This document shows positions 4,489-54,465 of a DNA stretch of 64,000 nt, piece by piece. The position numbers and the translations under genes are program-made. Location of the stretch: assembly GCA_035506275.1 (NCBI GenBank), contig DATJPT010000017.1, forward strand, positions 11,831 through 75,830. The letters run 5' to 3'. Under the pieces are notes generated by a model. The model was given only the letters and a program-made list of their open reading frames with translations, had not been told where the DNA came from and made no database searches. Source of the DNA: Bacteroidota bacterium (GTDB lineage Bacteria; Bacteroidota; Ignavibacteria; UBA10030; UBA8401). Within the stretch, counting starts at the first letter, position 1. Each line of letters starts with the position of its first letter.

Positions 4489-4505
4489 TAGGAAAGGGTT
4501 TGACG

Positions 4506-7500
4506 ATGAAAACCCCCATTACCGGTGTTATCGGAGGTTTGGTATTCCTGATAGGGGTACACAGCGCGGACGGGCAGCAACTCGTAAAACAGTTAAAGAC
4601 CGCCGTCCCGGCACGCGAGTCAATAGGGAGTGCGCAAAGGGCATCCGTTGATGCACAAACACCGGCTGCCAAACTTAAAGCACTCCTGGGCAAGAAAGCT
4701 CTGCCGGCAATTTCACCCCGCGTCCAAAACACTGCGAAGAACTCGGCCCCGGCCGCGAATCGAATCGGCCTGACGGCGCCGAGCGCCGTCGTTGCCGCAA
4801 AGGATGAGGGAATAAGGATGATCGTCGATAAGGAATCGGGGACTCCTCTCTATCTAAAGGAAACAACCCTTCCCCGTTCGGCGACAACTTCAGTCTCATC
4901 GGCAGGAAGCGCAACCGGAGAGGCGTACCGGTTCATCAACGACAAGAAAGCCTTGCTTCAGATCGATTCTCCGAGCGCGGAATTCGAAGTCTCAAACGTC
5001 ATGCAGGATGAGCTGGGCATGACACACGTAAAAATGAAACAGACAAGCCATGGGATAGATGTCTGGGGAAAAGAAATGATCGTCCACATCGGCAGGGAGG
5101 GAACCGCCGCTTCGCTCACCGGACGCATCGCGCCAACCAGAAGCGCGGCTGTGCAGGTGAATCCGAGCATAACGAAAGAAGCGGCCGTGAATACGGTGCT
5201 CGCGGACATGCGGCGGAACCGTCCCATAAGAACGTTGCCGAATCGAATGCAATCATTGCTCGGCTATGCGGGACCTGCAGCGAAGGAGGTGATCTGGTTT
5301 GACAAGGACCAGACCGCTCACCTGACCTGGCACGTGGAGGCGCGCAACGGTATGACCGAAGACTGGTATTACTTTGTGGATGCAACCAATGGGAAAATCC
5401 TCGACCGGTACAATAACGTTTGCTCTGACGGCCCGACGACTGCCAACGGGACAGACCTGAACGGCGTCACACGGTCGTTTGGAACTGTTCTTACAAACAG
5501 CGTTTATTACATGATCGATGCATCGGAGCCGATGTTCGTCAGTGCACAGACCCATTTTCCCGACTCAGTTGCAGGGGCCCTGCAGTGCTTCGACCTGCAG
5601 AATCATGATGTCGGCATGCCGCTCTATTATGTGGCCTCTCTCAATAATGCATGGAACGATCCTGCGACCGTGTCGGCGCACTTCAATGGGATCACGACAT
5701 ACAATTTCTACAGGACAACGTTCGGCCGGAACTCGATCGACGACGCGGGAATGTCGATCTATTCGATCGTCCACGTTACCGAGGACAGCACGGCGCTCGA
5801 CAATGCCTTCTGGAACGGGCTTTTCATGTGCTACGGCGACGGGGCGACTTACTTCAAGCCACTCGCCGGCGGACTTGACGTTGCGGCACATGAGATGACG
5901 CACGGGGTCACGCAGCATACCGCGAACCTTTTGTATCAAGGACAATCGGGGGCGCTGAACGAATCGATGTCGGACGTGTTTGCTACACTGGTGGACACGT
6001 TGAATTGGACCATCGGAGAACAGATCATCAAGGATCTGAGCACATTCCCTTCCGGCGCACTGAGGGATCTCTCCAATCCGCACAACGGAGGTTCGGAGGG
6101 ATCGGCCGCCTGGCAGCCTGCGATCATGAGCGAATTCGGGAACACCGACGAGGACAATGGAGGCGTTCACCTGAACAGCGGGATCCCGAATCACGCCTTT
6201 TACCTGGTCGCCTCGTCGATCGGGAGGCACGAGGCCGGACAAATATGGTACAGGGCGTTGACGGTCTATCTGACCCGCAGCGCGCAATTTCTCGATGCGC
6301 GCATCGCCACGGCAGAAGCGGCCTCCGATCTTTTTGGAACCGGGAGCAACGAAGTGACCGTCGTGAAAAATTCATGGGATGCCGTCGGGGTCCTTGAAGG
6401 AACCCCCCCGTCCGGACCGCCGGCAACGCACCTTCAGGGGCAGGATTGGATCATCGCCGTGAACACCGACCCGGGGGATCCGAACTCGATCTATGTCGCC
6501 AAGCCCCTCCCCGGCGCATCGGGAGGTTTATCGCCGCTCACGACCACGTTGGTGCTCAACCGGCCGGCGGTGACCGATACATCGGGGCTCATCGTCTTCG
6601 TCGACTCCGATAACGACCTCCGCGCCATCACCTCCAACCCGAGTTCGCCGCAGGAAACGCTGGTCGACACCCAGCATGTCTGGTGGAGCGTAGCGATCGG
6701 CCCCGGGTCGAGCAGCCTCGCGCTGACCACCAAGTTCGTCGATACCTCGATCTATTATTTTGACCTTACCAATTCCGCCAACGACAAAAAGTTCACGATC
6801 ACTACGCCGTCGTACGACGGCACAAATACGAACACTGCCCTCTACGCCGACGCGATGTCGTTTGATCCGTCGGGGAGGTATCTGTTGTACGACGTGTTCA
6901 ACCAGGTGACGAATCAAACCGGCGCACAAATTGGATACTGGACCATCAATGTGCTGGATGTTGAATCGGGAACGATCCAGAGCATCTTCCCGCCGCTGCC
7001 GGAGGGGGTGAGCGTCGGCAATCCATCGTATTCAAAGGCTTCGCCGAACAGGTTCCTCTTCGACTATGTCGATTCCAAAGCGAACCGGTATGCGGTCATG
7101 GCGGCGGATTTCAACACCGGCGATGTGGGGATCGTCGCCGATTCGAACGGCGCCATAGGGTACCCCACATATTCGGGGGACGATAAGACGGTGGCCTACC
7201 ACACTCTCACGAATTTCGAATCCGCCGAGCATGATGCAATCCAGCTAATGCCGATGCAGGGCGACTACCTCAACGGGACACACAACCCTGAATCGTATGT
7301 GGTGGACGCCACATTTCCCGTCTGGTTTGTCGTGGGGAGCAGGGTCACCGCGGTGGAAGAACCTCCTGTCCTGATCAGAGACTTTGTATTGGAAAACAAC
7401 TTTCCGAACCCATTCAACCCAAGCACGACCATTCGTTTTGTTCTTCCTGAGCGGAGCCGCGTTCGGCTGTCAGTCTTCAACGCTCTTGGACAACAGGTTG

Positions 7501-7640
7501 CCGGATTGGTAAATGAGGAAATGAATGCCGGAACGTACGAGAGGACATGGAACGGATCGAACTGTTCAAGCGGAATCTATTTTTATCGCCTTGAAGCCGG
7601 AACCTTCGTACAGACAAAAAAACTCATCCTCCTGAAGTAG
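4506..7640 (+). CDS. thermolysin-like M4 zinc metalloprotease with propeptide, large C-terminal beta-rich region and a T9SS C-terminal domain
   Basis: HEMTHGVT (HExxH) and downstream GALNESMSDVF (ExxxD) zinc-ligand motifs of MEROPS family M4; N-terminal signal peptide; C-terminus NFPNPFNPSTTIRFVLP...YFYRLEAGTFVQTKKLILLK. The track start at 4500 is TTG; the ATG at 4506 has a GGAAAGGG RBS. Confidence 0.85.
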   Translation: MKTPITGVIGGLVFLIGVHSADGQQLVKQLKTAVPARESIGSAQRASVDAQTPAAKLKALLGKKALPAISPRVQNTAKNSAPAANRIGLTAPSAVVAAKDEGIRMIVDKESGTPLYLKETTLPRSATTSVSSAGSATGEAYRFINDKKALLQIDSPSAEFEVSNVMQDELGMTHVKMKQTSHGIDVWGKEMIVHIGREGTAASLTGRIAPTRSAAVQVNPSITKEAAVNTVLADMRRNRPIRTLPNRMQSLLGYAGPAAKEVIWFDKDQTAHLTWHVEARNGMTEDWYYFVDATNGKILDRYNNVCSDGPTTANGTDLNGVTRSFGTVLTNSVYYMIDASEPMFVSAQTHFPDSVAGALQCFDLQNHDVGMPLYYVASLNNAWNDPATVSAHFNGITTYNFYRTTFGRNSIDDAGMSIYSIVHVTEDSTALDNAFWNGLFMCYGDGATYFKPLAGGLDVAAHEMTHGVTQHTANLLYQGQSGALNESMSDVFATLVDTLNWTIGEQIIKDLSTFPSGALRDLSNPHNGGSEGSAAWQPAIMSEFGNTDEDNGGVHLNSGIPNHAFYLVASSIGRHEAGQIWYRALTVYLTRSAQFLDARIATAEAASDLFGTGSNEVTVVKNSWDAVGVLEGTPPSGPPATHLQGQDWIIAVNTDPGDPNSIYVAKPLPGASGGLSPLTTTLVLNRPAVTDTSGLIVFVDSDNDLRAITSNPSSPQETLVDTQHVWWSVAIGPGSSSLALTTKFVDTSIYYFDLTNSANDKKFTITTPSYDGTNTNTALYADAMSFDPSGRYLLYDVFNQVTNQTGAQIGYWTINVLDVESGTIQSIFPPLPEGVSVGNPSYSKASPNRFLFDYVDSKANRYAVMAADFNTGDVGIVADSNGAIGYPTYSGDDKTVAYHTLTNFESAEHDAIQLMPMQGDYLNGTHNPESYVVDATFPVWFVVGSRVTAVEEPPVLIRDFVLENNFPNPFNPSTTIRFVLPERSRVRLSVFNALGQQVAGLVNEEMNAGTYERTWNGSNCSSGIYFYRLEAGTFVQTKKLILLK

Positions 7641-43961: not shown

Positions 43962-44957
43962 TTAAGACTGGAAGGAAAGAACTCTTGCGAGCAGCGCATC
44001 AGGAAGTATTGGGACGATGCCGACCTCGCCGCACACGACGCCGCCGGCAAAATTGGCAAGGCTTGCCGATTCGTAGATTGACGCGCCCGACGCCATCGCC
44101 ATCGTGAGCGTGGCGATCACCGTATCGCCGGCGCCGGAGACGTCGGCGACATGCTGCGCCCGCGTCGGCAAATGGAGCAGGGAGCCCTTATCATCCAGCA
44201 AACTCATCCCTTGTTCTCCGCGCGTGATCAGGATATTTTCTGCATTCAATTTTTCCTTCAACGCGCCGATGGCTTCGCGAAGGCTCTCGTCGGTGGCCAA
44301 CTTCATGCCCAGCGCTTCCTCGACCTCTTTTCTGTTCGGCTTAAACACCGAGGCATTTTTGTATTCGAAGAAGTTTTGGAACTTGGGGTCGACGGTGACA
44401 ATTTTCCTCTGACCGCGCGCCATCTCAATGATGTGATGGATCAAGGAGGCGGTGATGACCCCTTTGTTGTAGTCTTCGAGGATGATGCCGTCCAAGCTGG
44501 CAATGCTGTTCCGCAGAATCGAGAGGATCTGCTCCTGCACCGACGGGGAAATATCCCGTTTTTGTTCGTTATCGATCCTGACGACATGCTGGCCATGAGC
44601 AATGACGCGTGTTTTCACCGTCGTAGGCCGTGAAGGATCTTTTACGATCCCGCTTATTGGACAATTCTGCCCGGCGAGAAGTTTTGTCAGCAAATCGCCG
44701 TCGGCATCATCGCCGACAACGCCGACGAGGACCGGCTCCCCCCCCAGGGATTTGATATTATTGGCCACATTGGCGGCCCCGCCAAGCCGTTCGGTTTCCT
44801 TCTCCACCTCCACGATAGGAACCGGAGCCTCGGGGGAAATCCGGCCGACGGATCCCCAGAGATACTTGTCCACCATGACATCGCCGATAACGGCAATGCG
44901 CTTGTTTTTGAATTTTGAAAGAAGCTCTTTAAGCCGCGTTTCGGAAAACGTGACCAC
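43962..44957 (-). CDS. hldE: D-glycero-beta-D-manno-heptose 7-phosphate kinase (RfaE/HldE domain I, stand-alone; PfkB family)
   Basis: RIAVIGDVMVDKYLWG ... GGAANVA ... DVSGAGDT PfkB motifs; no ATG upstream of the domain, so GTG 44957 is proposed as start. Confidence 0.7.
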   Translation of the reverse strand: MVTFSETRLKELLSKFKNKRIAVIGDVMVDKYLWGSVGRISPEAPVPIVEVEKETERLGGAANVANNIKSLGGEPVLVGVVGDDADGDLLTKLLAGQNCPISGIVKDPSRPTTVKTRVIAHGQHVVRIDNEQKRDISPSVQEQILSILRNSIASLDGIILEDYNKGVITASLIHHIIEMARGQRKIVTVDPKFQNFFEYKNASVFKPNRKEVEEALGMKLATDESLREAIGALKEKLNAENILITRGEQGMSLLDDKGSLLHLPTRAQHVADVSGAGDTVIATLTMAMASGASIYESASLANFAGGVVCGEVGIVPILPDALLARVLSFQS

Positions 44958-45029
44958 GTTGACTTTTACGTAAGTAATTGAAACAGTTATAGATAGCGAA
45001 ATATAGCACTTTGGTGGGCGACAATCAAT

Positions 45030-45068
45030 AAAAAAGGCTGCCTCGGAGGTCCGAAGCAGCCTTTTTTG
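45030..45068 (-). terminator. rho-independent terminator downstream of the cytochrome gene
   Basis: aaaaaaggctgcctcggaggtccgaagcagcctttttt, a hairpin flanked by A- and T-runs. Confidence 0.5.
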
Positions 45069-45091
45069 GCCAGTGTACGCTGAATCCGATC

Positions 45092-47218
45092 TTACTTCAT
45101 CATTAACATCTTCTTCGTCACGATGTAATTTGGCGCTCCGTTGGATTGGGCAACCAGTCTGTAGAAGTAAATGCCGCTCGAGACTGTTGCACCGTGATTG
45201 TTCGTTCCGTTCCACGTCACTTTGTAATGGCCGGAGACGATGTCGCCGCTGACGAGGGTCTTGACAAGTTCGCCAAGAATATTGTAGACGTTCAACTGAA
45301 TCGTCGCAGAACGCGGAACAGAGAACTCGATGTTCGTCGACGGGTTGAACGGGTTCGGATAGTTCTGGCTGATCTCGTACGACGTCGGAGTCTTTTGGCT
45401 CACAACCTCAACGCCGGTCGGATAGAATCCGAGGGCCTTTTGCAGAAGGGCGACGGCGTACTTCGCATTGTGGACGCCCATGCTGCCGTCGTTCGTTACA
45501 AACGAATAGGTGTAAATACCCTGAACGAGATCGGGCCGGTTCTTTACCTTAAGGCTGTCCTTGATCGCCAGGGTCGGCTCGCCTGTCAGGCTGTCGATTG
45601 GCAGTCTGGCTTTGAGAAGAGCCAGGAGGCCGGCGACTTCGGTCTGCACGCCTTCGATTTTTCCGTTGCGGTCGTAGTCGTAGCTCGCTTTGACGTCGTC
45701 AAACGATTGGATTCCGGACCCATGGCAGGTCTGGCATGCTTCGGTATGGTCGTGCATAACGCCTGTACCGACCGTGTCCGACATCGATAATTGATGCTGT
45801 CCGCTGCCGTGCATATGGCATGTAACGCAGGCATCCGGAACGCCGGCATGAGTCATTAATCCGGTGAGGCTGCTGTCGCCGTACTGGTACGCATTCTGAC
45901 CGAAGAACATATCGGCTTGCGGATTACCGTGCGGGCCATAATGGTCAGCGAAACCGTAATACGGAGCTTTGGTCGTCACTTTTGTTGCAACGTTGTACCG
46001 CGACCGGTGGCAGTTCATGCAAAGCTGGCCAAGGCCGCCGATTCCAGCCGGGACGACATAACCGTTCCGCAGTGTATCGACGCTGACCGTTCTCAACTGA
46101 TTCGGGTTCGCTGCGCTGTGCGGATCATGGCAGACTGCGCAAGTGATAGGATAGCTAGCATCGCTTGAACTCCACGTGGACGCTGATGCCGGCTTTCCAG
46201 CAACAACCCATTTCTCGAATGCGCTTCCGCTGTGGCAGGGGAAGCAGCTCGTAGACGTTGCGACCTTGCCGGCAAGCGGCATTGTCGCATGATCCGATAG
46301 TGACCAATACGTGCCGGAGACATGGTGGGGGGGCGCATCGTGACATGACTGACACAAGCCTGCATCAAGAGAGAGGCCGATTTTTGAGATGTCGCCGTTG
46401 TGATCTTTGCCCGGGCCGTGGCAGCTTTCGCAGCCGATGCTCGCCAGCGGGAGCAGCGACGAATAATTCGCCGCCATGTTTTTATAGATTGAAGAATCGC
46501 CGTTGAAGATCAGATAACTGCTGCCGGATTTTGTCTTTCCCTTAAACGCCGTCGTGTCCCATCCAAGCGAATGGGCCATGTATCCGAAATTTCCGTCATT
46601 TGCCGAGAGGTCGTAGCCCGTCGTATGGCATTTCCAGCAACTGGCGGAGTACGATCCTTGACCGTATGCGTTGACTTCCAACTCTCCCATTATTCCCTGT
46701 GTGTAGATCTTAGCATGCCCCGTTCCCTGCCAATCGCTGTAATTCGCCGCGTGGCATTCACCGCAATACAAACCTGATGTATTCGGGTTCCCAAGGAACG
46801 TGCTCACAAAGAAAGTGTCCTGGTCGGTGCTTGTGCCGCCGTTCACAGACACATTCACTATGTATTGACCGGCCGAGTCTGCCGTGAAACTCTGACGCGG
46901 ATTGTTCCCGGCGCTGTCGAATGACGCGTTCGATCCTGTCGGCTTCGCGGCAAACGTCCACGTGAACGACGTTACAACCGTTGTTCCGGATCCGGTGGTA
47001 TCGGCAAATAAATATGCGCGCGCTCCTTTGCCGATCACCTTAAGGCCTGTTGTGGCAGTGTAGCTGCTCTTTCCGATCGCCGCCAGCTTTCCCGGGGACA
47101 TTGGTACAACCGTGAGCTTCACCGTCTGCGCCACCGCTCCTGAATATACGAGGCCAAGTAGGCATCCGGCAAGCAACCCTCTCAAAATATTAGCAAATCT
47201 GTTCATTGTATTCTCCAT
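45092..47218 (-). CDS. nonaheme c-type cytochrome with N-terminal Ig/FN3-like domain and a T9SS C-terminal sorting domain
   Basis: Signal peptide; nine CxxCH motifs (CGECH, CWKCH, CESCH, CQSCH, CFPCH, CAVCH, CMNCH, CVTCH, CQTCH); C-terminus NYPNPFNPSTNIEFSVP ... YFYRL ... TKKMLMMK. Confidence 0.8.
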   Translation of the reverse strand: MENTMNRFANILRGLLAGCLLGLVYSGAVAQTVKLTVVPMSPGKLAAIGKSSYTATTGLKVIGKGARAYLFADTTGSGTTVVTSFTWTFAAKPTGSNASFDSAGNNPRQSFTADSAGQYIVNVSVNGGTSTDQDTFFVSTFLGNPNTSGLYCGECHAANYSDWQGTGHAKIYTQGIMGELEVNAYGQGSYSASCWKCHTTGYDLSANDGNFGYMAHSLGWDTTAFKGKTKSGSSYLIFNGDSSIYKNMAANYSSLLPLASIGCESCHGPGKDHNGDISKIGLSLDAGLCQSCHDAPPHHVSGTYWSLSDHATMPLAGKVATSTSCFPCHSGSAFEKWVVAGKPASASTWSSSDASYPITCAVCHDPHSAANPNQLRTVSVDTLRNGYVVPAGIGGLGQLCMNCHRSRYNVATKVTTKAPYYGFADHYGPHGNPQADMFFGQNAYQYGDSSLTGLMTHAGVPDACVTCHMHGSGQHQLSMSDTVGTGVMHDHTEACQTCHGSGIQSFDDVKASYDYDRNGKIEGVQTEVAGLLALLKARLPIDSLTGEPTLAIKDSLKVKNRPDLVQGIYTYSFVTNDGSMGVHNAKYAVALLQKALGFYPTGVEVVSQKTPTSYEISQNYPNPFNPSTNIEFSVPRSATIQLNVYNILGELVKTLVSGDIVSGHYKVTWNGTNNHGATVSSGIYFYRLVAQSNGAPNYIVTKKMLMMK

Positions 47219-47484
47219 GTGTCAACGTTTTAGAAATCCACCAGGCTTCTGGTGCATCTAGTCGGATTTGCTATATCTTCCGCAACATTTGTGCCATACA
47301 AAACGCGTTGGAAGGTCGAAATTTGTTCAAAAATTAACTGTTTATTATTTCAACAATCAATATTTCCCAAAAGTAAAGCTTTTCTTTTCCAAAAAAATGG
47401 AAAAAATATGATAATTGGATAAGATTTCGCAATATGAAAGGCTGCTGACAACTGAGCTCAATGATTTTCTAATCGCAGAAACGA

Positions 47485-47521
47485 CAAAAAAAAGGCGTGA
47501 AATTGTAATTTTTCACGCCTT
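47485..47521 (-). terminator. rho-independent terminator after the FadL-like outer-membrane protein (OMP) gene
   Basis: aaaaaaaaggcgtgaaa-ttgtaa-tttttcacgcct; on the minus strand the hairpin is followed by a T-run. Confidence 0.55.
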
Positions 47522-47592
47522 CAAAATTTACAGCTACCGTTGATACCTGAACTCACGACCCCCAATAACCCTGCCCCCCCGCCCCAGAAGAA

Positions 47593-49050
47593 TCAGAACC
47601 TGTACGAAATAGTGAAGTCGACGTTCGTTGTCGAAACGGTCTCGTCTGTCCGCGAGAGGTTAAGCGATTCATCGCCGTAGTTGTTATGGAAGTTCTTGAA
47701 CGATCCGAACATCGCCGCTGCATCGATCATCACATTATCCTCGATCAAAATCCCGGCGCCGGCAGTAATGGTGGTCAGACCGAACGTCGACGGATCGCCG
47801 GCATACGGCGAGGGCTTGAAGGAATAGCCCGCCCGCAGCCGCACATCTGTTTTGGGGATCTCGAACTCGCCGCCAACAGCATAATTAAGCGTCGAACGAA
47901 ACTGCTGTTTTAACGCAATGTTTTCGTTCTCCAGATCGGCGTTGTCGGTCCACTGAAGCTGCGTCCAATCGGTATATTCAACTTGCCCGGAGAGAAGAAG
48001 ACCGCGCACCGGCGAATACGAAGCACCGGCCCCGAACACCCAGGGAGTTGTTATGCCATAGTCGTTGTTCGCGTCGTATGAATAGTAGTACCCTGTCGTA
48101 TCATCGAACGCGCTTTGTCCGGCGTTCGTATATGTTTCATGAACGGTGAACGCCGTCGGAGTTTTGATCGTGATGCCGAAACGGGCAATATCTTCGTACC
48201 GGTACATAAACCCGAACATCGCGTTGACGCCGTTCAAATCGCTCGTCAGCGTGCTGTTGTAGTTGAACGCATTGAATTCCCGGTAGAGGGAATCGGGAAG
48301 AACATATCCGTCCGCATCGTAGAAACGGGTCGGATCATTGTAGACGTTATTGACGTCCGATTCGTTGTAGTTCCTGACATAATTGTATGTTCCGTTGAGG
48401 AGGTTGATCGTCACACCGAAAGAAAAATCCTTCGCGAGATCGACGGCCCCGGAGAATGCCCACGTGCCCATGCTGCCGCTTTCGCTGACATTTCCTTGCT
48501 GCTGGACATTTTTCTGGATCGGAGTGTAGCCGTCCGAATTTTCAAGATACGTTTGAAAGGGGATGTCAAAATTTGCATCCGCATCGTACAGCCACGGGAT
48601 GATCGAGCTCTTCGCGTTGAAGCCGTTGAACGAAAGCGCGGTTGCATAATTATTCACTCTGTTGTAACCGACGGCAAAGACCAGGCTCCCGCGCGAGGTC
48701 GGAACGGGGAACACGAGCCCCAGATCGTCAAGGTTGGTGGCGCTGTTGCTGGCCGACGACGACGTTCCCAAAAACGTTGCGCTGTTCGAATAGTTGGTAT
48801 TGACAATGCCGCCGGTGAACTCTAGTCTCCTCATCTGAGCCAGGCCTGCCGGGTTCCAGAACGTTGCGCTGTAATCATCGGCTACGCCGATGTATGCGCC
48901 GCCCATGCCTTCCGCCCGTGCACCGACTCCGAATCCCGTGGATGAAAAACGGTATGCATCCTCAGCAGACTGGGCACGAAGATAAGAGATATTCAGCATG
49001 ATCAGTCCGAACAATAAAATGAACAAAGTGACACAGCGATTATTTTTCAT
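47593..49050 (-). CDS. FadL/TodX-family-like outer-membrane beta-barrel protein (possibly PorV-type)
   Basis: Signal peptide; N-terminal GFGVGARAEGMGGAYIGVADDYSATFWNPAGLA block resembling the FadL N-terminal hatch motif (G.GRA.SG.GA.ADDAS..NPA); alternating beta-strand pattern; C-terminal ...FTISYRF; GGAGG RBS at the 49050 start. Confidence 0.6.
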   Translation of the reverse strand: MKNNRCVTLFILLFGLIMLNISYLRAQSAEDAYRFSSTGFGVGARAEGMGGAYIGVADDYSATFWNPAGLAQMRRLEFTGGIVNTNYSNSATFLGTSSSASNSATNLDDLGLVFPVPTSRGSLVFAVGYNRVNNYATALSFNGFNAKSSIIPWLYDADANFDIPFQTYLENSDGYTPIQKNVQQQGNVSESGSMGTWAFSGAVDLAKDFSFGVTINLLNGTYNYVRNYNESDVNNVYNDPTRFYDADGYVLPDSLYREFNAFNYNSTLTSDLNGVNAMFGFMYRYEDIARFGITIKTPTAFTVHETYTNAGQSAFDDTTGYYYSYDANNDYGITTPWVFGAGASYSPVRGLLLSGQVEYTDWTQLQWTDNADLENENIALKQQFRSTLNYAVGGEFEIPKTDVRLRAGYSFKPSPYAGDPSTFGLTTITAGAGILIEDNVMIDAAAMFGSFKNFHNNYGDESLNLSRTDETVSTTNVDFTISYRF

Positions 49051-49285
49051 AGGTATCCTCCGCTTCCACTCCCATCCGTCTCCGCGATTCGGCCGGTTAT
49101 CCGTTCGGCAGGTTATCGATACAACTGAGGTTCGACCCGTTGCCCTGCTGCAGCCGGCAGACACACCGTTTGCTTTAACAATCGAGCAGCCGGAGGGGGG
49201 GTGCAGGTGTTGTCGTGATTATGGTGAATGTTAGACAATTAATATGCTAAAAACTTCTTGACCGTAGTGTCGGGAGAAATCTCTC

Positions 49286-50164
49286 CTATCTGCCTCTATT
49301 CCTGCCGCCTCCGCCTCCCCGGCTTCCGCTGCCACCGCTCGATGCTCTGCCGCTCGAACGCTGCGGTGCCGAATAACCCTGATGAACCATTTGTCTTGAT
49401 TGCGGCTGCGCGTACCTTGCCGAAGGCTGAACTCGTCCACGATGTTGGTACATCTGCCGGACGTTGGAGTTTCTCGAGCCATAGCTGGAATATCTTCCGC
49501 GGCTGGCCACCGTCGCCTGCCGCGAAGCGACCGTCGATCTATTCGCCCTTTGCCACCAGGGAATTTCCTGGCGCGTTCGTGAGGCAGACGGGCTTGTCGC
49601 TACTGCTCCCGGCGCATTAGGAGTCCTCCCCCTTGATGGGGTGACTCCGTTGGCAGGGATCACCCGGCCGGGAGAGTTCGGCGCAACACGACCGGCGAAG
49701 TATCCGAAACTTCCGCGCCCGCTGCCAATGGTGCGCTGCCTCGTCGCAAAATTCCTCCCTCCGTACCAGCCATGGTATGCGTGTCCATAATACCCGCCGT
49801 AACCGTAGCCGTATCCGTAGCCATAACCCCATCCGAATCCGAACCCGTATGGATACCACAGCCCCCACGGGTAGTAGTTGTAATCGAACCACGGGTCGTA
49901 GCCAACTGCCGACGCGTAATACTCCGGCGGCGGATAATAGTAATCGAAGGCCATATGGTATTGCGCGTCGCGATAGCTGTCATCATCGAAATAGCTCGCG
50001 CTCGTCGAGTCGCTCGACGACGTCGTATCGGTGTAAGCATAATCATCGTCCCCTCCCGCCCATCGTTCGCTCACCGTTTCCGTGTGAGTATAACAGCCGG
50101 CGAACAAAAGCCCGGCTGCCGAAAGAGGGATCAATCCATTGAGAAAGCTTCGCAGTGTTTTCAT
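49286..50164 (-). CDS. Gly/Tyr/Trp-rich low-complexity lipoprotein with Arg/Ser/Gly-rich (RGG-like) C-terminal tail
   Basis: Signal peptide plus LFAGC lipobox; acidic Tyr-rich segment, then GFGFGWGYGYGYGYGYGGYYGHAYHGWYGG, then RS/RG-rich tail ending SGGSGSRGGGGGRNRGR; GY codons vary at wobble positions. Confidence 0.45.
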   Translation of the reverse strand: MKTLRSFLNGLIPLSAAGLLFAGCYTHTETVSERWAGGDDDYAYTDTTSSSDSTSASYFDDDSYRDAQYHMAFDYYYPPPEYYASAVGYDPWFDYNYYPWGLWYPYGFGFGWGYGYGYGYGYGGYYGHAYHGWYGGRNFATRQRTIGSGRGSFGYFAGRVAPNSPGRVIPANGVTPSRGRTPNAPGAVATSPSASRTRQEIPWWQRANRSTVASRQATVASRGRYSSYGSRNSNVRQMYQHRGRVQPSARYAQPQSRQMVHQGYSAPQRSSGRASSGGSGSRGGGGGRNRGR

Positions 50165-50239
50165 ACCAGGTTCCTTCCTCCTTCCGATGTCAATACTAAC
50201 ACTAACAGCGGAAAGGAATCGTTCATTCCCGTTCCGGAA

Positions 50240-51016
50240 TTACAGCACTCTGACGTATTCTACTTTAATAGTTCTGTTTCCTATCGTGACGTTGTTCTGA
50301 TTTCTTACAAGATTCTTCAAATCGCATCCGATCGTAAAACCATTCCCCCACGACCATCGCAGGCCGCTATTCAAATATCCCTTCCCTTTGCCCACCACGC
50401 CGATATTGTCATTCAAGCCAAAATCATATTCTGCAAGCAGCGATATGTCCGATCCGAGGGACTTTTCAGCGCCGACAAAAAAATCGAGGCTTTTGTTGCC
50501 GTCCTTGTTCTCGAGGCTGTAATTCGTCCCGCCGTGGAGGCTCAGGTTGCCCATCAGAGAATAGTTCTTGCTGGCTGCGGCGTAAAAACCGCGGGACTTG
50601 ATCGTGAAGCGCTGCAGGCTGTCGATGTAGGTCTCTTTACCCTGCGAATCGAACCCGAGGGCGATCGCGGGCATCGCCATTGTCTCATCGAATAAGCGAA
50701 ATTTCACGTTGACTCCCGGAAGTCTTTGCATCGTAATATCGTCGTGGCCGATAATTCCGGTTCCGCCGTACGAGACGCCGAAGTTCAACCGGTCGAGCGC
50801 TCCGGCCGTCAATCCGACCGTCATTCCCCCCTCCTGAAAGAAGTCGACATCCATCGCGAAAGCTCCTCGTTTTAAGAGCCCGCCTGTCGGCGTATCGATG
50901 ATATATCTTGGTTCGATGTTTGCTGCATCGCCGGCCGTGTTCTGCGCTAAAGACAAGCTGTAAATAAAGAACGAAGAAAAGATGAATAACAGTTTCTTCA
51001 CTGATATTCCTTCCAT
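50240..51016 (-). CDS. small outer-membrane beta-barrel protein (about 258 aa), family unknown
   Basis: Signal peptide MEGISVKKLLFIFSSFFIYSLSLAQ; alternating hydrophobic beta-strand pattern; TTGACA-like element and GGAGGAAGG RBS upstream. Confidence 0.5.
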   Translation of the reverse strand: MEGISVKKLLFIFSSFFIYSLSLAQNTAGDAANIEPRYIIDTPTGGLLKRGAFAMDVDFFQEGGMTVGLTAGALDRLNFGVSYGGTGIIGHDDITMQRLPGVNVKFRLFDETMAMPAIALGFDSQGKETYIDSLQRFTIKSRGFYAAASKNYSLMGNLSLHGGTNYSLENKDGNKSLDFFVGAEKSLGSDISLLAEYDFGLNDNIGVVGKGKGYLNSGLRWSWGNGFTIGCDLKNLVRNQNNVTIGNRTIKVEYVRVL

Positions 51017-51089
51017 TAGATTAGACGAACCATCGCGCAAGAAGTTTACCCATACCACGCCCTATTCTGCCCGATAATGTATGAAGATT

Positions 51090-52538
51090 TCACTCCTTTT
51101 TCCACGTGGTGCCGGTTTTCGTATCCTCGAGCACGATGCCGAGCGCTTTGACAGCATCGCGGATCTTATCCGATAATGCCCATAATTTCTGATTCCGAAT
51201 TTCTTTTCGTACGGCGATGATGAGATCCATCAAACCGGCCTCCGTGGAGCCCCCCCCCGATGCGTTGGATGATGCGGGGGCCAAAGAAATTCCGAGGACT
51301 CCTGAACAGAGATCCTCAAACATCTTCTCCGTTGTTCGAAGTGCCTTTTCCGTCGGGAGTGATCCCGGCCTCAACCAGTCATTAACTTGGGATGAAAGGT
51401 CGAAGAGAACAGCGATCGCTTTCGGGGTATTGAAATCGTCGTTCATCGCTTCGAGAAATGCAGTCCGGAACGGCGTTACGTCTTTCTCGGTCATGCCGAA
51501 AGAGGAAGTTCGGCTGGCGAAATCGATCGTCTCCCGAAGCCTCCGTAGCGTACTCTGCAGCTTTGCAAGTCCTGTCCCCGATGCCTCCAGCGCCTGTTCG
51601 CTGAAATCGAGCGTGCTCCGGTAATGGCTTTGCAGGATAAAAAAGCGGATAACGGCAGGGTCGAATTTTTTATAGAGGTCCTTGAGCGTGACAAAGTTGC
51701 CGAGGGACTTCGACATCTTTTGGCCGTTCACGGTCACCAGGTTGTTATGGATCCAGTATCTCACGAACGGCTTGCCGGTTGCAGATTCGCTTTGCGCGAT
51801 CTCGCATTCGTGGTGAGGGAATTGGTTGTCCAATCCCCCTCCATGGATATCGAACGTCTCGCCGAGGTACTTCATCGACATCGCCGAACACTCCACGTGC
51901 CATCCGGGGAAACCCTCGCCCCATGGACTCTGCCATCGCATGATGTGTTCCGGTTCCGCTTTTTTCCAAAGGGCAAAATCTTCCGGATTCCGTTTTTCGG
52001 ATTTCACTTCAACCCGGGTTCCCTCTTTCATCTCATCGATCGTCCGTCCGGAGAGCTTCCCGTAGGCCTTGAATTTCCGGACATCAAAATAGACGGAACC
52101 GTTCACTTCGTACGCATGCCCGTTCGCAAGAAGCACCTTCACGATCTCGATCTGCTCGATGATATGCCCCGATGCTCTCGGGGAAATATCGGGACGAATC
52201 ACGTTGAGAGCGTCCATGTCCTCGAAATAACTCCGTGTGACCGCCTCCGCGATCTGCATTGGATGAACTTTTTCGATCCGCGATTGCTTCAGCATTCTGT
52301 CCTCGCCGTCGTCGAGCAAGTGCCCCACATCGGTGATGTTCTGCACATACAATACTTTGTTGCCGAGGTAACGAAGGTAGCGGACGATCACATCGAACGA
52401 AACGTAGCTCTTGCCGTGGCCGATGTGCGAATCGCTGTAGACCGTCGGACCGCAGACATACATCCCTACGTAGCCCGCATGAAGCGGTTTGAATTCTTCC
52501 TTCGTCCGGGTAAGCGTGTTATAGAAAGTTAATGGCAT
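51090..52538 (-). CDS. cysS: cysteine--tRNA ligase
   Basis: CGPTVYSDSHIGHGKSY (HIGH) and KMSKSLGN (KMSKS) class-I motifs. Confidence 0.92.
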   Translation of the reverse strand: MPLTFYNTLTRTKEEFKPLHAGYVGMYVCGPTVYSDSHIGHGKSYVSFDVIVRYLRYLGNKVLYVQNITDVGHLLDDGEDRMLKQSRIEKVHPMQIAEAVTRSYFEDMDALNVIRPDISPRASGHIIEQIEIVKVLLANGHAYEVNGSVYFDVRKFKAYGKLSGRTIDEMKEGTRVEVKSEKRNPEDFALWKKAEPEHIMRWQSPWGEGFPGWHVECSAMSMKYLGETFDIHGGGLDNQFPHHECEIAQSESATGKPFVRYWIHNNLVTVNGQKMSKSLGNFVTLKDLYKKFDPAVIRFFILQSHYRSTLDFSEQALEASGTGLAKLQSTLRRLRETIDFASRTSSFGMTEKDVTPFRTAFLEAMNDDFNTPKAIAVLFDLSSQVNDWLRPGSLPTEKALRTTEKMFEDLCSGVLGISLAPASSNASGGGSTEAGLMDLIIAVRKEIRNQKLWALSDKIRDAVKALGIVLEDTKTGTTWKKE

Positions 52539-52755: not shown

Positions 52756-54465
52756 TCATTTTCGCCCCATCAACTCCCGCGCGCTCTTCAACCCGGCCTC
52801 AGTGATCTTCTCTCCGCTCATCAGCTTCGCAACTTCCCGTATCCGTTCTTCAATGCCGAGCTTGCGCAAGCTGGTCGTCGTCCGTTTCCCGTCTTCAATT
52901 TTCTCGACCGCAAAATGCGTGTCTGCTAGTCCCGCGATCTGAGGAAGGTGAGTGATCGTGATGATCTGATGAAGCGAAGCGAGTTTCTTCAAGCTTACGC
53001 CGACCGCCTGCCCGATGCGTCCGCTTACGCCGACATCGATCTCATCGAAGATAAGAAGCGGGACTTTGTCAGAGGCGGCGAGGGCAGATTTCAACCCGAG
53101 CATGACGCGCGAAATTTCCCCTCCCGACGCTACTTTTGCGAGCGGCTTGAGGTCCTCGCCGACGTTCGTCGAAATAAAGAACTCGACCAGATCGACCCCT
53201 TTTGGCGTTGCCTCGAAGGACTCTTTCCCTAGCTGAACATAGGCATCGGCGGCGCCGGCCTTCCCCGCCACATTCGCGATGCTCACCCAGAATTTTGCGT
53301 TCATAATGCCAAGCTCGGCAAGCGAAGCAACGATTTCTTTCTCGATCTTTTTCGCTGATTCCCGCCGCTTTTTTGTCAATTGCTGGGCAGCAGCCGAGCA
53401 GACCCGGCGTTCCTCAAGGATGGCTGCGTCGAGCGATGCGAGCTCTTTTTCAAAATTCTCTGCCAGAGAAAATTCGCTGCCGATCTTCCGGCGGTGTTCA
53501 AGCAGCGACTCGAGCGTGCCGCCGTATTTCTTTTTCAGAAGCGAGAACTGTCCGAGCCGTTCCCGGATCTGTTCCAGCTTCTCAGGGTTGAACTCTATTT
53601 TTGCGTTATAGGATTGAATGAACTTCGACAATTCTTCGACGATGATCTCTGCCGATTTCGCCTCCCCGGCAGCGTCGGCAAACACAGGATCGATCTCCCG
53701 CAGGGTTTCGATCTGCTTCCAGGCCTGAACAAGATGATCGTGGACCGAGGACTCGCCGTCATAGAGAAGCTGGCTGAGCTGCGAGGTCAGCTCATGAAGC
53801 TTTTCCGCATTTTCCAGAAGCTTCAGCTCCGATTCCATGGATTCTTCTTCTCCGGCCTGCGGATCTACAGCATCGATCTCCTTCATTTGAAATTCGTAGA
53901 GGTCCTTCTTCTCCTTCAAACGTAATTCTTGCTCCTGCAGGTCGCGTTTCTTCGAAAAGAGATCGGAGAGCTTCTTGTAGGATCGGCGATATTCTGCGAG
54001 GAGGCGCTCATCGCCGCCAAATTCATCCAGAAAATCGATATGCGTTTCCGGACGGAGCAGGGCCTGGTGGTCGTGCTGGCCGTGCAGGTCGACGAGGATG
54101 TCCCCGGCCTCTTTGAGGAGTGAGAGCGGAACGGGAGAATCGTTGATGAAGCAGCGGCTCTGCCCTTTCACCGAAATTTCCCGCCGGACGATCATTTCGT
54201 CCGACGGGTCGATGTCGTTTTCCGTGAGAAGCATTTGAAGTTTCGGCGAACCGGCAATCACGAAGGTCCCTTCGACAATGGCTTTCTCGGCCCCCTTGCG
54301 TACAACATCCGAACTGGCCCGCTCGCCGAGAAGCAAGCTTAGTGCGTCGATGAGGATTGATTTTCCCGCCCCCGTTTCGCCGGTGATAATGTTCAATCCG
54401 CGCTCAAAATCAACGTTGATTTCTTCGATGAGGGCATAGTGTTTGACGTAGAGGGAACGCAGCAT
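52756..54465 (-). CDS. recN: DNA repair protein RecN
   Basis: N-terminal Walker A GETGAGKS, long coiled coil, C-terminal signature/Walker B. Confidence 0.9.
   Translation of the reverse strand: MLRSLYVKHYALIEEINVDFERGLNIITGETGAGKSILIDALSLLLGERASSDVVRKGAEKAIVEGTFVIAGSPKLQMLLTENDIDPSDEMIVRREISVKGQSRCFINDSPVPLSLLKEAGDILVDLHGQHDHQALLRPETHIDFLDEFGGDERLLAEYRRSYKKLSDLFSKKRDLQEQELRLKEKKDLYEFQMKEIDAVDPQAGEEESMESELKLLENAEKLHELTSQLSQLLYDGESSVHDHLVQAWKQIETLREIDPVFADAAGEAKSAEIIVEELSKFIQSYNAKIEFNPEKLEQIRERLGQFSLLKKKYGGTLESLLEHRRKIGSEFSLAENFEKELASLDAAILEERRVCSAAAQQLTKKRRESAKKIEKEIVASLAELGIMNAKFWVSIANVAGKAGAADAYVQLGKESFEATPKGVDLVEFFISTNVGEDLKPLAKVASGGEISRVMLGLKSALAASDKVPLLIFDEIDVGVSGRIGQAVGVSLKKLASLHQIITITHLPQIAGLADTHFAVEKIEDGKRTTTSLRKLGIEERIREVAKLMSGEKITEAGLKSARELMGRK

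Follow-up and report, generated by a model that had tools for sequence, protein, structure and literature searches.

The DNA of an Ignavibacteria-like bacterium of the FCB group analyzed here, a stretch of 64 kb referred to as the window, contains a gene for a probably Sec-exported nine-haem c-type cytochrome that ends in a type-A T9SS sorting domain, as the initial annotation had claimed. With moderate confidence we interpret the protein as a surface-destined terminal oxidoreductase of the OcwA/OmhA type that is adapted to T9SS export and transcribed alone, a role that, beyond the identity of the domains themselves, we infer. If this is true, a relative of the surface cytochromes with which Gram-positive bacteria reduce iron would be delivered to a Gram-negative cell surface by the T9SS.

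Domain architecture of the cytochrome

The coding sequence (Table 1) starts with the ATG at 47206, which is preceded by GGAG at 47216-47213, and the resulting length of 704 aa equals that of the database protein P0001 and of independent gene calls. The length of 708 aa given originally was derived from an ORF beginning at 47218, four codons too early; residue numbers for motifs and domains in this text follow the numbering of that 708-aa ORF. The NCBI name of the protein is 'FlgD immunoglobulin-like domain containing protein'. At the N-terminus the sequence itself shows a basic n-region and a hydrophobic core, ahead of the predicted cleavage site AVA/Q, and Gln31 is invariant among 37 homologues, which fits the 'Q-rule' of Bacteroidetes, followed by 77% of the substrates in Ignavibacterium album (PMC5837995). 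The putative signal peptide is followed by a beta-sandwich (residues ~31-140) that resembles PKD domains, in agreement with the Ig/FN3-like domain proposed for this region.

Table 1. Location of the cytochrome gene, its domains, its putative regulatory elements and the neighboring genes in the window.
Feature	Position	Strand	Remarks
Nine-haem cytochrome CDS	45092..47206	-	704 aa + stop; ORF list, GGAG-N6-ATG, P0001 and independent gene calls agree
Putative Sec signal peptide, predicted signal peptidase I cut AVA/Q	47129..47206	-	read from sequence
N-terminal PKD/Ig-like beta-sandwich, residues ~31-140	46799..47128	-	match to PKD domains
OcwA/OmhA-type nine-haem core + C-terminal helical bundle, residues ~145-600	45419..46786	-	
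T9SS type-A C-terminal sorting domain, residues ~612-708	45095..45385	-	TIGR04183 + fold
Putative sigma-54 type -24/-12 promoter TGGCACAAATGTTGC	47282..47296	-	75 nt 5' of ATG; sequence motif
Inverted repeat TTTTCC-N8-GGAAAA, candidate activator-binding site	47385..47404	-	~100 nt 5' of -24 box
Predicted intrinsic terminator of upstream envelope-gene transcript	47491..47522	-	between FadL-like gene and cytochrome promoter
Predicted intrinsic terminator of cytochrome transcript	45030..45067	-	17-bp stem then T-run
FadL-family 14-strand outer-membrane barrel, 486 aa	47593..49053	-	Toluene_X + structure model; neighbor
Gly/Tyr/Trp-rich lipoprotein, basic Arg/Ser/Gly tail, 292 aa	49286..50164	-	lipobox FAGC
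Small secreted protein, putative OMP, ~235 aa mature	50240..51058	-	

The central part of the protein carries nine CxxCH motifs, at residues 152, 194, 263, 289, 325, 360, 400, 464 and 495, compared to a mean of 0.02 and a maximum of one in shuffled versions of the sequence, and all nine are invariant across the 37 homologues (47-78% identity), which bears out the number of haem-binding sites noted earlier. Both the order of the motifs and the fold of this nine-haem core agree with OcwA. Helices predicted at residues 524-538, 552-558, 562-577 and 585-596 form an NrfA-like C-terminal bundle, and this region aligns with residues 420-497 of OcwA, including the 'DGSxGVHN' motif. The first His-His pair of OcwA (HH281/282) is matched by HH298/299, with H299 at least 90% conserved, while at the second OcwA site (HH380/381) only one His, the invariant H430, is present as part of an H-x-N-P-Q motif, so that the haem-5 pocket differs from the H-H-P of OcwA. 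By analogy with OcwA, two of the haems probably have open distal pockets; the AlphaFold2 model of the cytochrome (mean pLDDT 78) is haem-free. Among the Pfam models, C552 matched only residues 457-597, and the MtrC/MtrF domain II/IV model was matched with 39 bits vs 30. A CxxCK motif was not found in the cytochrome.

The C-terminal sorting domain passed the NCBIfam model TIGR04183 (33.1 bits, cut-off 23), with the match at the very end of the protein (residues 620-692), in support of the assignment made originally, and fell 1.4 bits short of Pfam PF18962 (25.6, cut-off 27). Since the best Pfam match on the tail is FlgD_ig (41.2, cut-off 27), which is also reflected in the NCBI protein name, and PF18962 is just missed, the beta-sandwich could be a mere Ig/FlgD-like structural domain of a cytochrome that stays in the periplasm. 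We regard this as very improbable given that TIGR04183 is passed and that FlgD_ig matches co-occur with T9SS-tail matches in nearly all homologues among the matches listed. Moreover, the terminal signature NPNPFNP...GxYFYRL...KK(M/L)xxxK is common to two secreted proteases encoded in the window, a C25 peptidase and an M4 protease, which bear the same type of tail and both pass PF18962, and the compact Ig-like beta-sandwich of the AlphaFold2 model superposes on the solved sorting domains of PorU, PorZ and mirolase. In the family defined by the haem core, a terminal T9SS sorting domain is present in 77 of the best 150 cluster representatives, and an LPXTG anchor takes its place in one. No T9SS machinery (SprA/Sov, PorK-N, PorU, PorV) was found among the ~28 ORFs scanned in the window, and cytochrome maturation genes are absent from its 64 kb. 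The presence of a T9SS in the source genome is supported indirectly by the two further sorting-domain cargo proteins and by T9SS genes reported in Ignavibacteriota (PMC11285876).

Transcription and the neighboring envelope genes

The cytochrome gene is predicted to be a monocistronic unit with terminators on both sides and its own conserved sigma-54 promoter. The upstream terminator (47522..47491) is made up of a stem of 12 bp and a subsequent T-run (-16.7 kcal/mol, z -4.96 upon folding), and the hairpin is retained with altered bases in two orthologous loci (L081 and L086). In addition to this terminator after the first OMP gene, the only one recognized before, a second one of even lower folding energy (-27.9 kcal/mol, z -5.53) lies at 45067..45030, so that the gene is flanked on both sides. 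Between the upstream terminator and the start codon, an exact match to TGGCAC-N5-TTGC (47296..47282) is the sole one in the 64-kb window; the background frequency of the motif is 0.019 per 600 nt. All five syntenic orthologues have a -24/-12 motif 73-106 nt 5' of their start codon, with 10 of 10 positions matched in L081, L086 and L089 and 9 of 10 in L090, at an aligned position in spacers that have otherwise diverged. The terminators together with this promoter suggest that an enhancer-binding activator turns the cytochrome on and that the gene is not co-transcribed with its neighbors. Neither rpoN nor a sigma-54 activator (Sigma54_activat) was found among the ~28 window ORFs scanned. The inverted repeat further upstream, retained in L081 and L086 only, might very tentatively be considered an activator-binding site.

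Three envelope genes share the minus strand with the cytochrome gene, as described before, although they lie upstream of it and do not follow it. The ORF of the large OMP starts at ~49053, not at 49164. Its original description as FadL/PorV-like holds for the FadL part, with a Pfam Toluene_X match of 56 bits vs 29.7 and a model that shows a FadL-fold barrel, but not for PorV, since the PorV/PorQ family model was not matched. The model represents a plugged 14-strand barrel similar to FadL/BamG and not an MtrB/OmbB-type cytochrome sheath. The Gly/Tyr/Trp-rich lipoprotein, whose earlier identification agrees with the presence of a lipobox, matched nothing in Pfam or NCBIfam and has orthologues in L081, L086 and L087. 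Orthologues of the small putative OMP (61-87% identity) occur in the same three loci, and its sole match was sub-threshold (YjbH, 18.6 bits vs 24).

The initial annotation had combined the cytochrome and these three envelope proteins into one dedicated outer-surface electron-transfer module. The neighborhood is indeed conserved in one lineage: in the window and in L081, L086, L089 and L090 the cluster and the cytochrome gene lie side by side in the same orientation, down to 52% identity of the cytochrome and, in L090, despite an altered downstream context. In most relatives the cluster also encodes a lipoprotein of ~200 aa that has a single conserved CxxCH. Elsewhere, however, the cluster and the cytochrome occur separately. 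The cluster is conserved after recN-cysS without a following cytochrome in L087 and L088, whereas six homologues of 48-57% identity (L082, L084, L094, L095, L096 and L002), as well as all distant cytochrome homologues, are found in other contexts without the cluster. In L089 the gene of an unrelated T9SS glycosidase is located between the two, and the cytochrome is retained both in L081, where the CxxCH lipoprotein has decayed, and in the window, which lacks this lipoprotein. Together with the terminator and the separate sigma-54 promoter between cluster and cytochrome, and with an OMP unlike the large barrels that sheathe cytochromes, these data make a dedicated partnership unlikely and identify the OMP/lipoprotein genes as an independently conserved envelope cluster. 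The adjacency within one lineage down to 52% identity still leaves room for a looser functional link.

Proposed function and alternative roles

An extracellular electron-transfer role, as first suggested for this protein, is plausible because, among structurally characterized proteins, it is most closely related to OcwA and OmhA, two Fe(III) reductases of the cell surface, and not to the periplasmic NrfA or HAO. The cytochrome would be exported by Sec, with signal peptidase I cutting before the invariant Gln, and the nine c-type haems would be attached in the periplasm, as the invariant motifs imply. The T9SS would then recognize the type-A sorting domain and move the holoprotein, already folded, through the outer membrane; judging from known T9SS, removal of the sorting domain would be followed by tethering to a surface glycolipid or by release. 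Based on homology, the haem chain could finally pass electrons to extracellular Fe(III)/Mn(IV) oxides, humic substances or electrodes. Electrons would presumably be supplied across the outer membrane by an unlinked porin-cytochrome conduit or by soluble shuttles. No MtrAB- or OmbB-type porin-cytochrome conduit is encoded in the 64-kb window, no porin or periplasmic cytochrome gene adjoins the cytochrome gene, and all other genes in the window have at most one CxxCH; a surface cytochrome without a trans-outer-membrane electron supply alongside is mechanistically incomplete.

The same protein could act at the surface, or after secretion, as an enzyme on soluble substrates such as nitrite, hydroxylamine or sulfur oxyanions, serving detoxification or respiration instead of mineral reduction. 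A catalytic role of this kind is conceivable because its family is part of the NrfA/HAO/MccA superfamily and even OcwA shows slow activity as a reductase of nitrite and hydroxylamine. We nevertheless consider it rather unlikely, as the cytochrome has no CxxCK motif and is nearer to OcwA/OmhA than to NrfA, the nitrite turnover of OcwA is very slow (~1 per minute), a nitrite reductase at the cell surface has no obvious rationale, and distant homologues are located among high-haem-count cytochromes. Electrons might also flow in the reverse direction or between cells, with Fe(II), cathodes or partner cells as the donors, or be stored at the surface, since multihaem chains are reversible and the direction of flow is not fixed by any sequence feature. 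The characterized relatives are reductases of extracellular acceptors, which makes such a role a distinctly unlikely alternative to a surface reductase that delivers electrons to external acceptors.

Comparison with known systems

OcwA, the nine-haem outer cell-wall cytochrome of the Gram-positive Thermincola potens JR (PDB 6I5B), lacks both the PKD-like N-terminal domain and the T9SS sorting domain of the window cytochrome, and the overall identity of the two proteins is only ~29%. OmhA, an 11-haem S-layer-associated cytochrome of Carboxydothermus ferrireducens (PDB 6QVM), differs by two extra N-terminal haems, a Gram-positive envelope and the absence of a T9SS signal. NrfA and its octahaem relatives (ONR, MccA, HAO) are periplasmic enzymes, in contrast to the window cytochrome with its surface-export signal. 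NrfA is a pentahaem protein with a CxxCK catalytic haem, and identity with NrfA is ruled out by the nine CxxCH motifs, the lack of CxxCK and the extra domains.

The proposed role has functional analogues in Shewanella, namely MtrC/OmcA together with the MtrAB conduit, and in the porin-cytochrome complexes of Geobacter; the role in common would be that of a multihaem terminal reductase located on the outside of the outer membrane of a Gram-negative cell. MtrC, a lipoprotein with ten haems, is exported by the type II system and docks on a large porin sheathing MtrA. The window cytochrome has nine haems, no lipobox and an OcwA-type fold, and its export is expected to occur via the T9SS; it does not belong to the MtrC/OmcA decahaem class, which comprises ten-haem lipoproteins with a staggered-cross fold.

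With classical type-A cargo of the T9SS, such as gingipains, PorU, PorZ, mirolase and secreted proteases and glycosidases, the cytochrome shares the same sorting domain by both HMM and fold. The difference lies in the passenger, which is a cofactor-loaded redox protein instead of a hydrolase or adhesin, and our literature search found no paper linking the T9SS with multihaem cytochromes. In L006, a distant homologue that also bears a sorting domain is encoded in an island together with an FeS protein, cytochromes with 15 and 18 haems, a cytochrome b and a second sorting-domain cytochrome. The same island contains a PAS histidine kinase and an NtrC-type sigma-54 activator that is divergent to the homologous cytochrome gene.

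Architecture of the cytochrome

The cytochrome of the window carries a valid type-A sorting domain for secretion by the type IX system (T9SS), as the initial annotation had proposed. Its last approximately 95 residues pass the NCBIfam model TIGR04183 (33.1 bits versus 23) and narrowly miss the Pfam model PF18962 (25.6 versus 27), and in an AlphaFold2 model of the protein (mean pLDDT 78, pTM 0.72) this C-terminal domain forms a beta-sandwich matching the PorU, PorZ and mirolase sorting domains. The Ig-like N-terminal domain was likewise recovered, with the approximately 110 N-terminal residues of the mature protein forming a PKD/Ig-like sandwich. All nine CxxCH motifs were found; shuffled sequences have 0.02 on average and never more than one. 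The nine are invariant across 37 aligned homologues (47-78% identity), as are H168, H273, H310, H430, H457, H475, H583, M469 and M479, and H299 and H367 are kept in 90% or more of these sequences. The start codon had to be corrected: the ATG of the 708-residue frame first assigned to the gene overlaps the ribosome-binding site (cATGGAGaatacaATG), and homologue alignment, independent gene calls and a 704-residue twin in the database (P0001) agree on 47206 as the true start. Residue numbers given here follow the 708-residue frame.

Immediately after the predicted signal-peptidase site stands an invariant Gln, which fits the Q-rule of Bacteroidetes that is strong in Ignavibacterium album too (PMC5837995). 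Assignment as a lipoprotein on the basis of a LAGC sequence (residues 16-19) was rejected, as the Cys is not conserved and lies inside the hydrophobic core, before the invariant A|Q site. Similarly, the names 'nitrite reductase c552' and 'FlgD Ig-like domain protein', under which NCBI lists members of the family, were set aside as partial-domain annotations. When genome contigs were scanned with a back-translated QNYPNPFN pattern, sorting domains of unrelated proteins were matched as well, which left L001, L002, L003, L005 and L006 as the loci of use.

For Ignavibacteriota, the presence of T9SS genes has been reported (PMC11285876). The window contains two more T9SS cargo genes, encoding a C25-family peptidase and an M4 thermolysin-like protease, whose tails pass PF18962 and have a sequence pattern almost identical to that of the cytochrome sorting domain; the organism therefore appears to use this sorting signal routinely. 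At the level of sequence, it is well supported that the window protein is a T9SS-exported surface cytochrome. Such a protein would be loaded with haem, exported and tethered to the cell surface, with a putative direction of electron flow and putative substrates.

Transcription of the cytochrome gene and its adjacency to the envelope cluster

The genes relevant here all lie on the minus strand. The envelope genes, which had been described as following the cytochrome gene on the same strand, do share its strand but precede it in the direction of transcription.

Features of the window around the cytochrome gene, with the two additional T9SS cargo genes
Feature	Position	Strand
C25-family peptidase	919-2352	+
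M4 thermolysin-like protease	4500-7640	+
recN	54465..52756	-
cysS	52538..51090	-
Small secreted protein (putative outer-membrane protein, OMP)	51058..50240	-
Gly/Tyr-rich lipoprotein	50164..49286	-
FadL-like OMP	about 49053..47593	-
Hairpin terminator	47522..47491	-
Sigma-54 motif	47296..47282	-
Cytochrome	47206..45092	-
Strong terminator	45067..45030	-
rfaE-type kinase and adenylyltransferase, then TamB and RNase R	downstream of cytochrome	

Between the FadL-like gene and the cytochrome gene lies a spacer of 374 nt with an intrinsic terminator (-16.7 kcal/mol, z -5.0), then a sigma-54 motif and finally the ATG. The motif, TGGCACAAATGTTGC, is an exact match to the sigma-54 -24/-12 consensus, the sole one in the 64-kb window, and is located approximately 200 nt past the terminator and 75 nt before the ATG. 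In aligned upstream regions of homologous loci it is the single conserved block, the rest having diverged, and it scores 10/10 in L081, L086 and L089 and 9/10 in L090, with 73-106 nt between it and the start codon, against a background of 0.019 matches of at least 9/10 per 600 nt in all fetched loci. Near-consensus sigma-54 motifs also precede T9SS cytochrome genes in the loci L094, L006 and L082. An inverted repeat, TTTTCC-N8-GGAAAA, is found approximately 100 nt upstream of the -24 box; as only the two closest relatives keep it, it counts at most as a candidate activator site. Scanning for the sigma-70 consensus brought up weak 9/12 matches only, which were disregarded. With Rfam, a scan covering 44900-51200 had no match above noise level in the 374-nt leader, its sub-threshold matches falling on the downstream terminator only. 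That terminator, after the cytochrome stop codon, has a predicted energy of -27.9 kcal/mol. Given its own sigma-54 motif and terminators on either side, the cytochrome gene appears at the sequence level to be independently regulated and monocistronic, and its expression in vivo would probably depend on sigma-54.

An unusually long non-coding upstream region of approximately 250-800 nt was seen at every cytochrome homologue examined (window and L081-L096), whatever the neighbouring genes. Beyond the sigma-54 box and the terminator, neither a conserved element nor an Rfam family was recognised in these regions.

The initial annotation had combined the cytochrome with the small OMP, the lipoprotein and the FadL-like OMP into one dedicated four-gene module for surface electron transfer, and conserved gene order seems at first to favour such a unit. 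The full order recN, cysS, small OMP, lipoprotein(s), FadL-like OMP, cytochrome and rfaE is also found in L081 (75% cytochrome identity) and L086, and partial arrangements occur in L089 (58% cytochrome identity), where a T9SS glycosidase gene stands between the OMP and the cytochrome, and in L090 (52% cytochrome identity), where the downstream context has changed. However, a terminator and a separate sigma-54 promoter motif lie between the cluster and the cytochrome gene, and each occurs elsewhere without the other. The cluster without the cytochrome is present in L088 and in L087, where it is followed by genes for a response regulator, a DinB protein and a T9SS glycosidase. Conversely, cytochrome homologues of 48-57% identity occur without the cluster in other recurrent contexts: next to a second cytochrome that has a sorting domain and a length of approximately 1000 aa (L082, L094), by themselves behind an AIRS-like gene (L084, L095) or after MgtE/Nramp genes (L096). 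For a further homologue in this identity range, in L002, there is no envelope-cluster gene within 10 kb. Since L082 falls inside the cluster-bearing group in a rough neighbour-joining tree, the adjacency of cluster and cytochrome looks ancestral to one lineage and appears to have been lost at least once. These comparisons do not uphold the four-gene module, which is left as an unlikely reading, and show instead an independently conserved envelope cluster that T9SS cargo genes, including the cytochrome gene, came to adjoin in one lineage. We regard it as very improbable that the small OMP, the aromatic-rich lipoproteins (one with a conserved CxxCH in most relatives) and the FadL-fold barrel feed electrons to the T9SS-tethered cytochrome as a new FCB-specific outer-membrane conduit, with the adjacency in five genomes being functional and not due to ancestry alone.

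Several further features of the cluster were observed. A GHL10-family glycosidase with a T9SS sorting domain is encoded downstream of the FadL-like gene in two loci (L089:2342-4138, L087:10423-12846), and this slot seems to collect T9SS cargo genes. A second cluster lipoprotein of approximately 200 aa (L086:6354-6983, L087:6320-6976, L088:6233-6931, L089:151-750, L090:2398-3015) has a single conserved haem-type motif, C-x-S-C-H-S-x-A-E-L-D-D-R-Y-Y-D, and may represent an undescribed family of monohaem lipoproteins; in L081 the motif has degenerated (SLSCP), and the window, in the gap 49054-49285, lacks the gene altogether. Both cluster lipoproteins (window 49286-50164 (-); L081, L086, L087, L088, L090) start with GCYT and have a common R-x-R-T-I-G-S-T-R-G motif, Tyr/Trp/Gly-rich low-complexity cores and basic Arg/Ser/Gly tails, and look like paralogues of a family without a Pfam or NCBIfam model. 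By structure, the FadL-like OMP resembles BamG, the newly described BAM subunit of Bacteroidota, as closely as it does FadL, and its gene is part of what looks like a housekeeping stretch (recN, cysS ... rfaE, TamB). The protein could be this lineage's counterpart of BamG, but its NCBIfam score is far under the cut-off.

Family size, sorting signals and distant loci

A word-indexed search returned more than 626 homologues of the cytochrome, nearly all of them approximately 700 aa long, with T9SS-tail Pfam matches and from Ignavibacteria or 'Bacteroidota' MAGs. Searched exhaustively, the haem core alone yielded 246 clusters (50% identity) at E<=1e-30 and 895 at E<=1e-10. A T9SS sorting domain is present at the C-terminus of 77 of the 150 best cluster representatives, according to a local sorting-domain HMM for which ten proteins scanned with NCBIfam served as a check, one of them having a type-B domain. 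Some of the remaining representatives end directly after the helical bundle, like OcwA; one (P0361) has an LPXTG cell-wall anchor, and two further tails, ...FYRV..P and ...DYPxxxLRGPV..., recur on the nine-haem core. The anchor and the two tails, which suggest alternative surface-sorting signals, are among the non-T9SS ends of the database proteins P0361, P0289, P0293, P0304 and P0338, and P0241, P0261, P0318 and P0372. This recurrent pairing of the core with different sorting signals supports a probable extracytoplasmic role at the surface. Tandem giants (P0241, P0247, P0254, P0259, P0264) combine two or three OcwA-like modules in 1288-1946 aa with 16-24 CxxCH, P0241, itself among the remaining representatives, being 1946 aa long with 24 CxxCH.

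A second family of T9SS-tagged multihaem cytochromes, of 976-1035 aa, is encoded directly upstream of the OcwA-like homologue in two loci (L082:4684-7614, L094:2458-5565); the L082 copy, the one in which motifs were counted, has nine CxxCH, and a near-consensus sigma-54 motif precedes its gene. More distantly, the L006 locus of an Ignavibacteria MAG encodes a homologue of 31% identity with a sorting domain and eight CxxCH, within a cytochrome island (L006:967-15382). Besides a second, six-haem cytochrome with a T9SS sorting domain, the island has an operon whose products are an FeS protein, cytochromes with 15 and 18 haems and a cytochrome b, as well as genes for a PAS histidine kinase and, divergent from the cytochrome homologue, an NtrC-type sigma-54 activator. 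This arrangement resembles the inner-membrane, quinol-oxidising Cbc-type complexes of Geobacter and their sigma-54 control. In L003, 12-, 14- and 6-haem cytochromes surround the homologue. These distant loci lend support to a role in electron transfer. An outer-membrane electron conduit was identified in none of the loci examined.

Comparison with OcwA and OmhA

The window cytochrome belongs to the structural family of OcwA, the nine-haem surface cytochrome of Thermincola potens JR, and OmhA, its 11-haem counterpart in Carboxydothermus ferrireducens, and consists of a core of OcwA type flanked by a PKD-like domain and a T9SS export signal. In a pairwise alignment the nine haem motifs of OcwA occur in the same order, HH298/299 aligns with the His-His pair above the five-coordinate haem 2, and the C-terminal helices including the DGSxGVHN motif align as well. 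At haem 5, the second open haem of OcwA and OmhA, the sites are similar but not identical, with an invariant His in GPHxNPQ in the window family and H-H-P in OcwA and OmhA. To our knowledge, this class was previously known from Gram-positive thermophiles only. A phylogenetic study found OcwA/OmhA 'very poorly represented' in databases (PMC9250108), and unnamed Gram-negative nine-haem relatives have been mentioned earlier (PMC7829351); the OcwA-like core proves abundant, with about half of the best 150 representatives T9SS-tagged. OcwA and OmhA are experimentally located at the cell surface and reduce Fe(III) oxides and electrodes, and OcwA in addition shows slow turnover of nitrite and hydroxylamine (PMC6703420, PMC7829351). 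Kinship to these proteins strengthens the original reading of the window cytochrome as a probable agent of extracellular electron transfer.

If this reading is true, T9SS would be a main route by which Ignavibacteria and related FCB bacteria, organisms for which enrichment on anodes and with Fe(III) is a repeated finding, export and anchor their cytochromes for extracellular electron transfer, and it would be able to carry large haem-loaded redox proteins. The prediction also provides simple genomic markers, namely an OcwA-like core combined with TIGR04183, often behind a sigma-54 promoter. In the literature searched, no link of T9SS with multihaem cytochromes or extracellular electron transfer was found. 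Known surface cytochromes of Gram-negative metal reducers depend on type II secretion or porin-cytochrome complexes; what appears to be new in the present case is a predicted terminal reductase of OcwA type, coupled to type IX secretion and to putative sigma-54 control.
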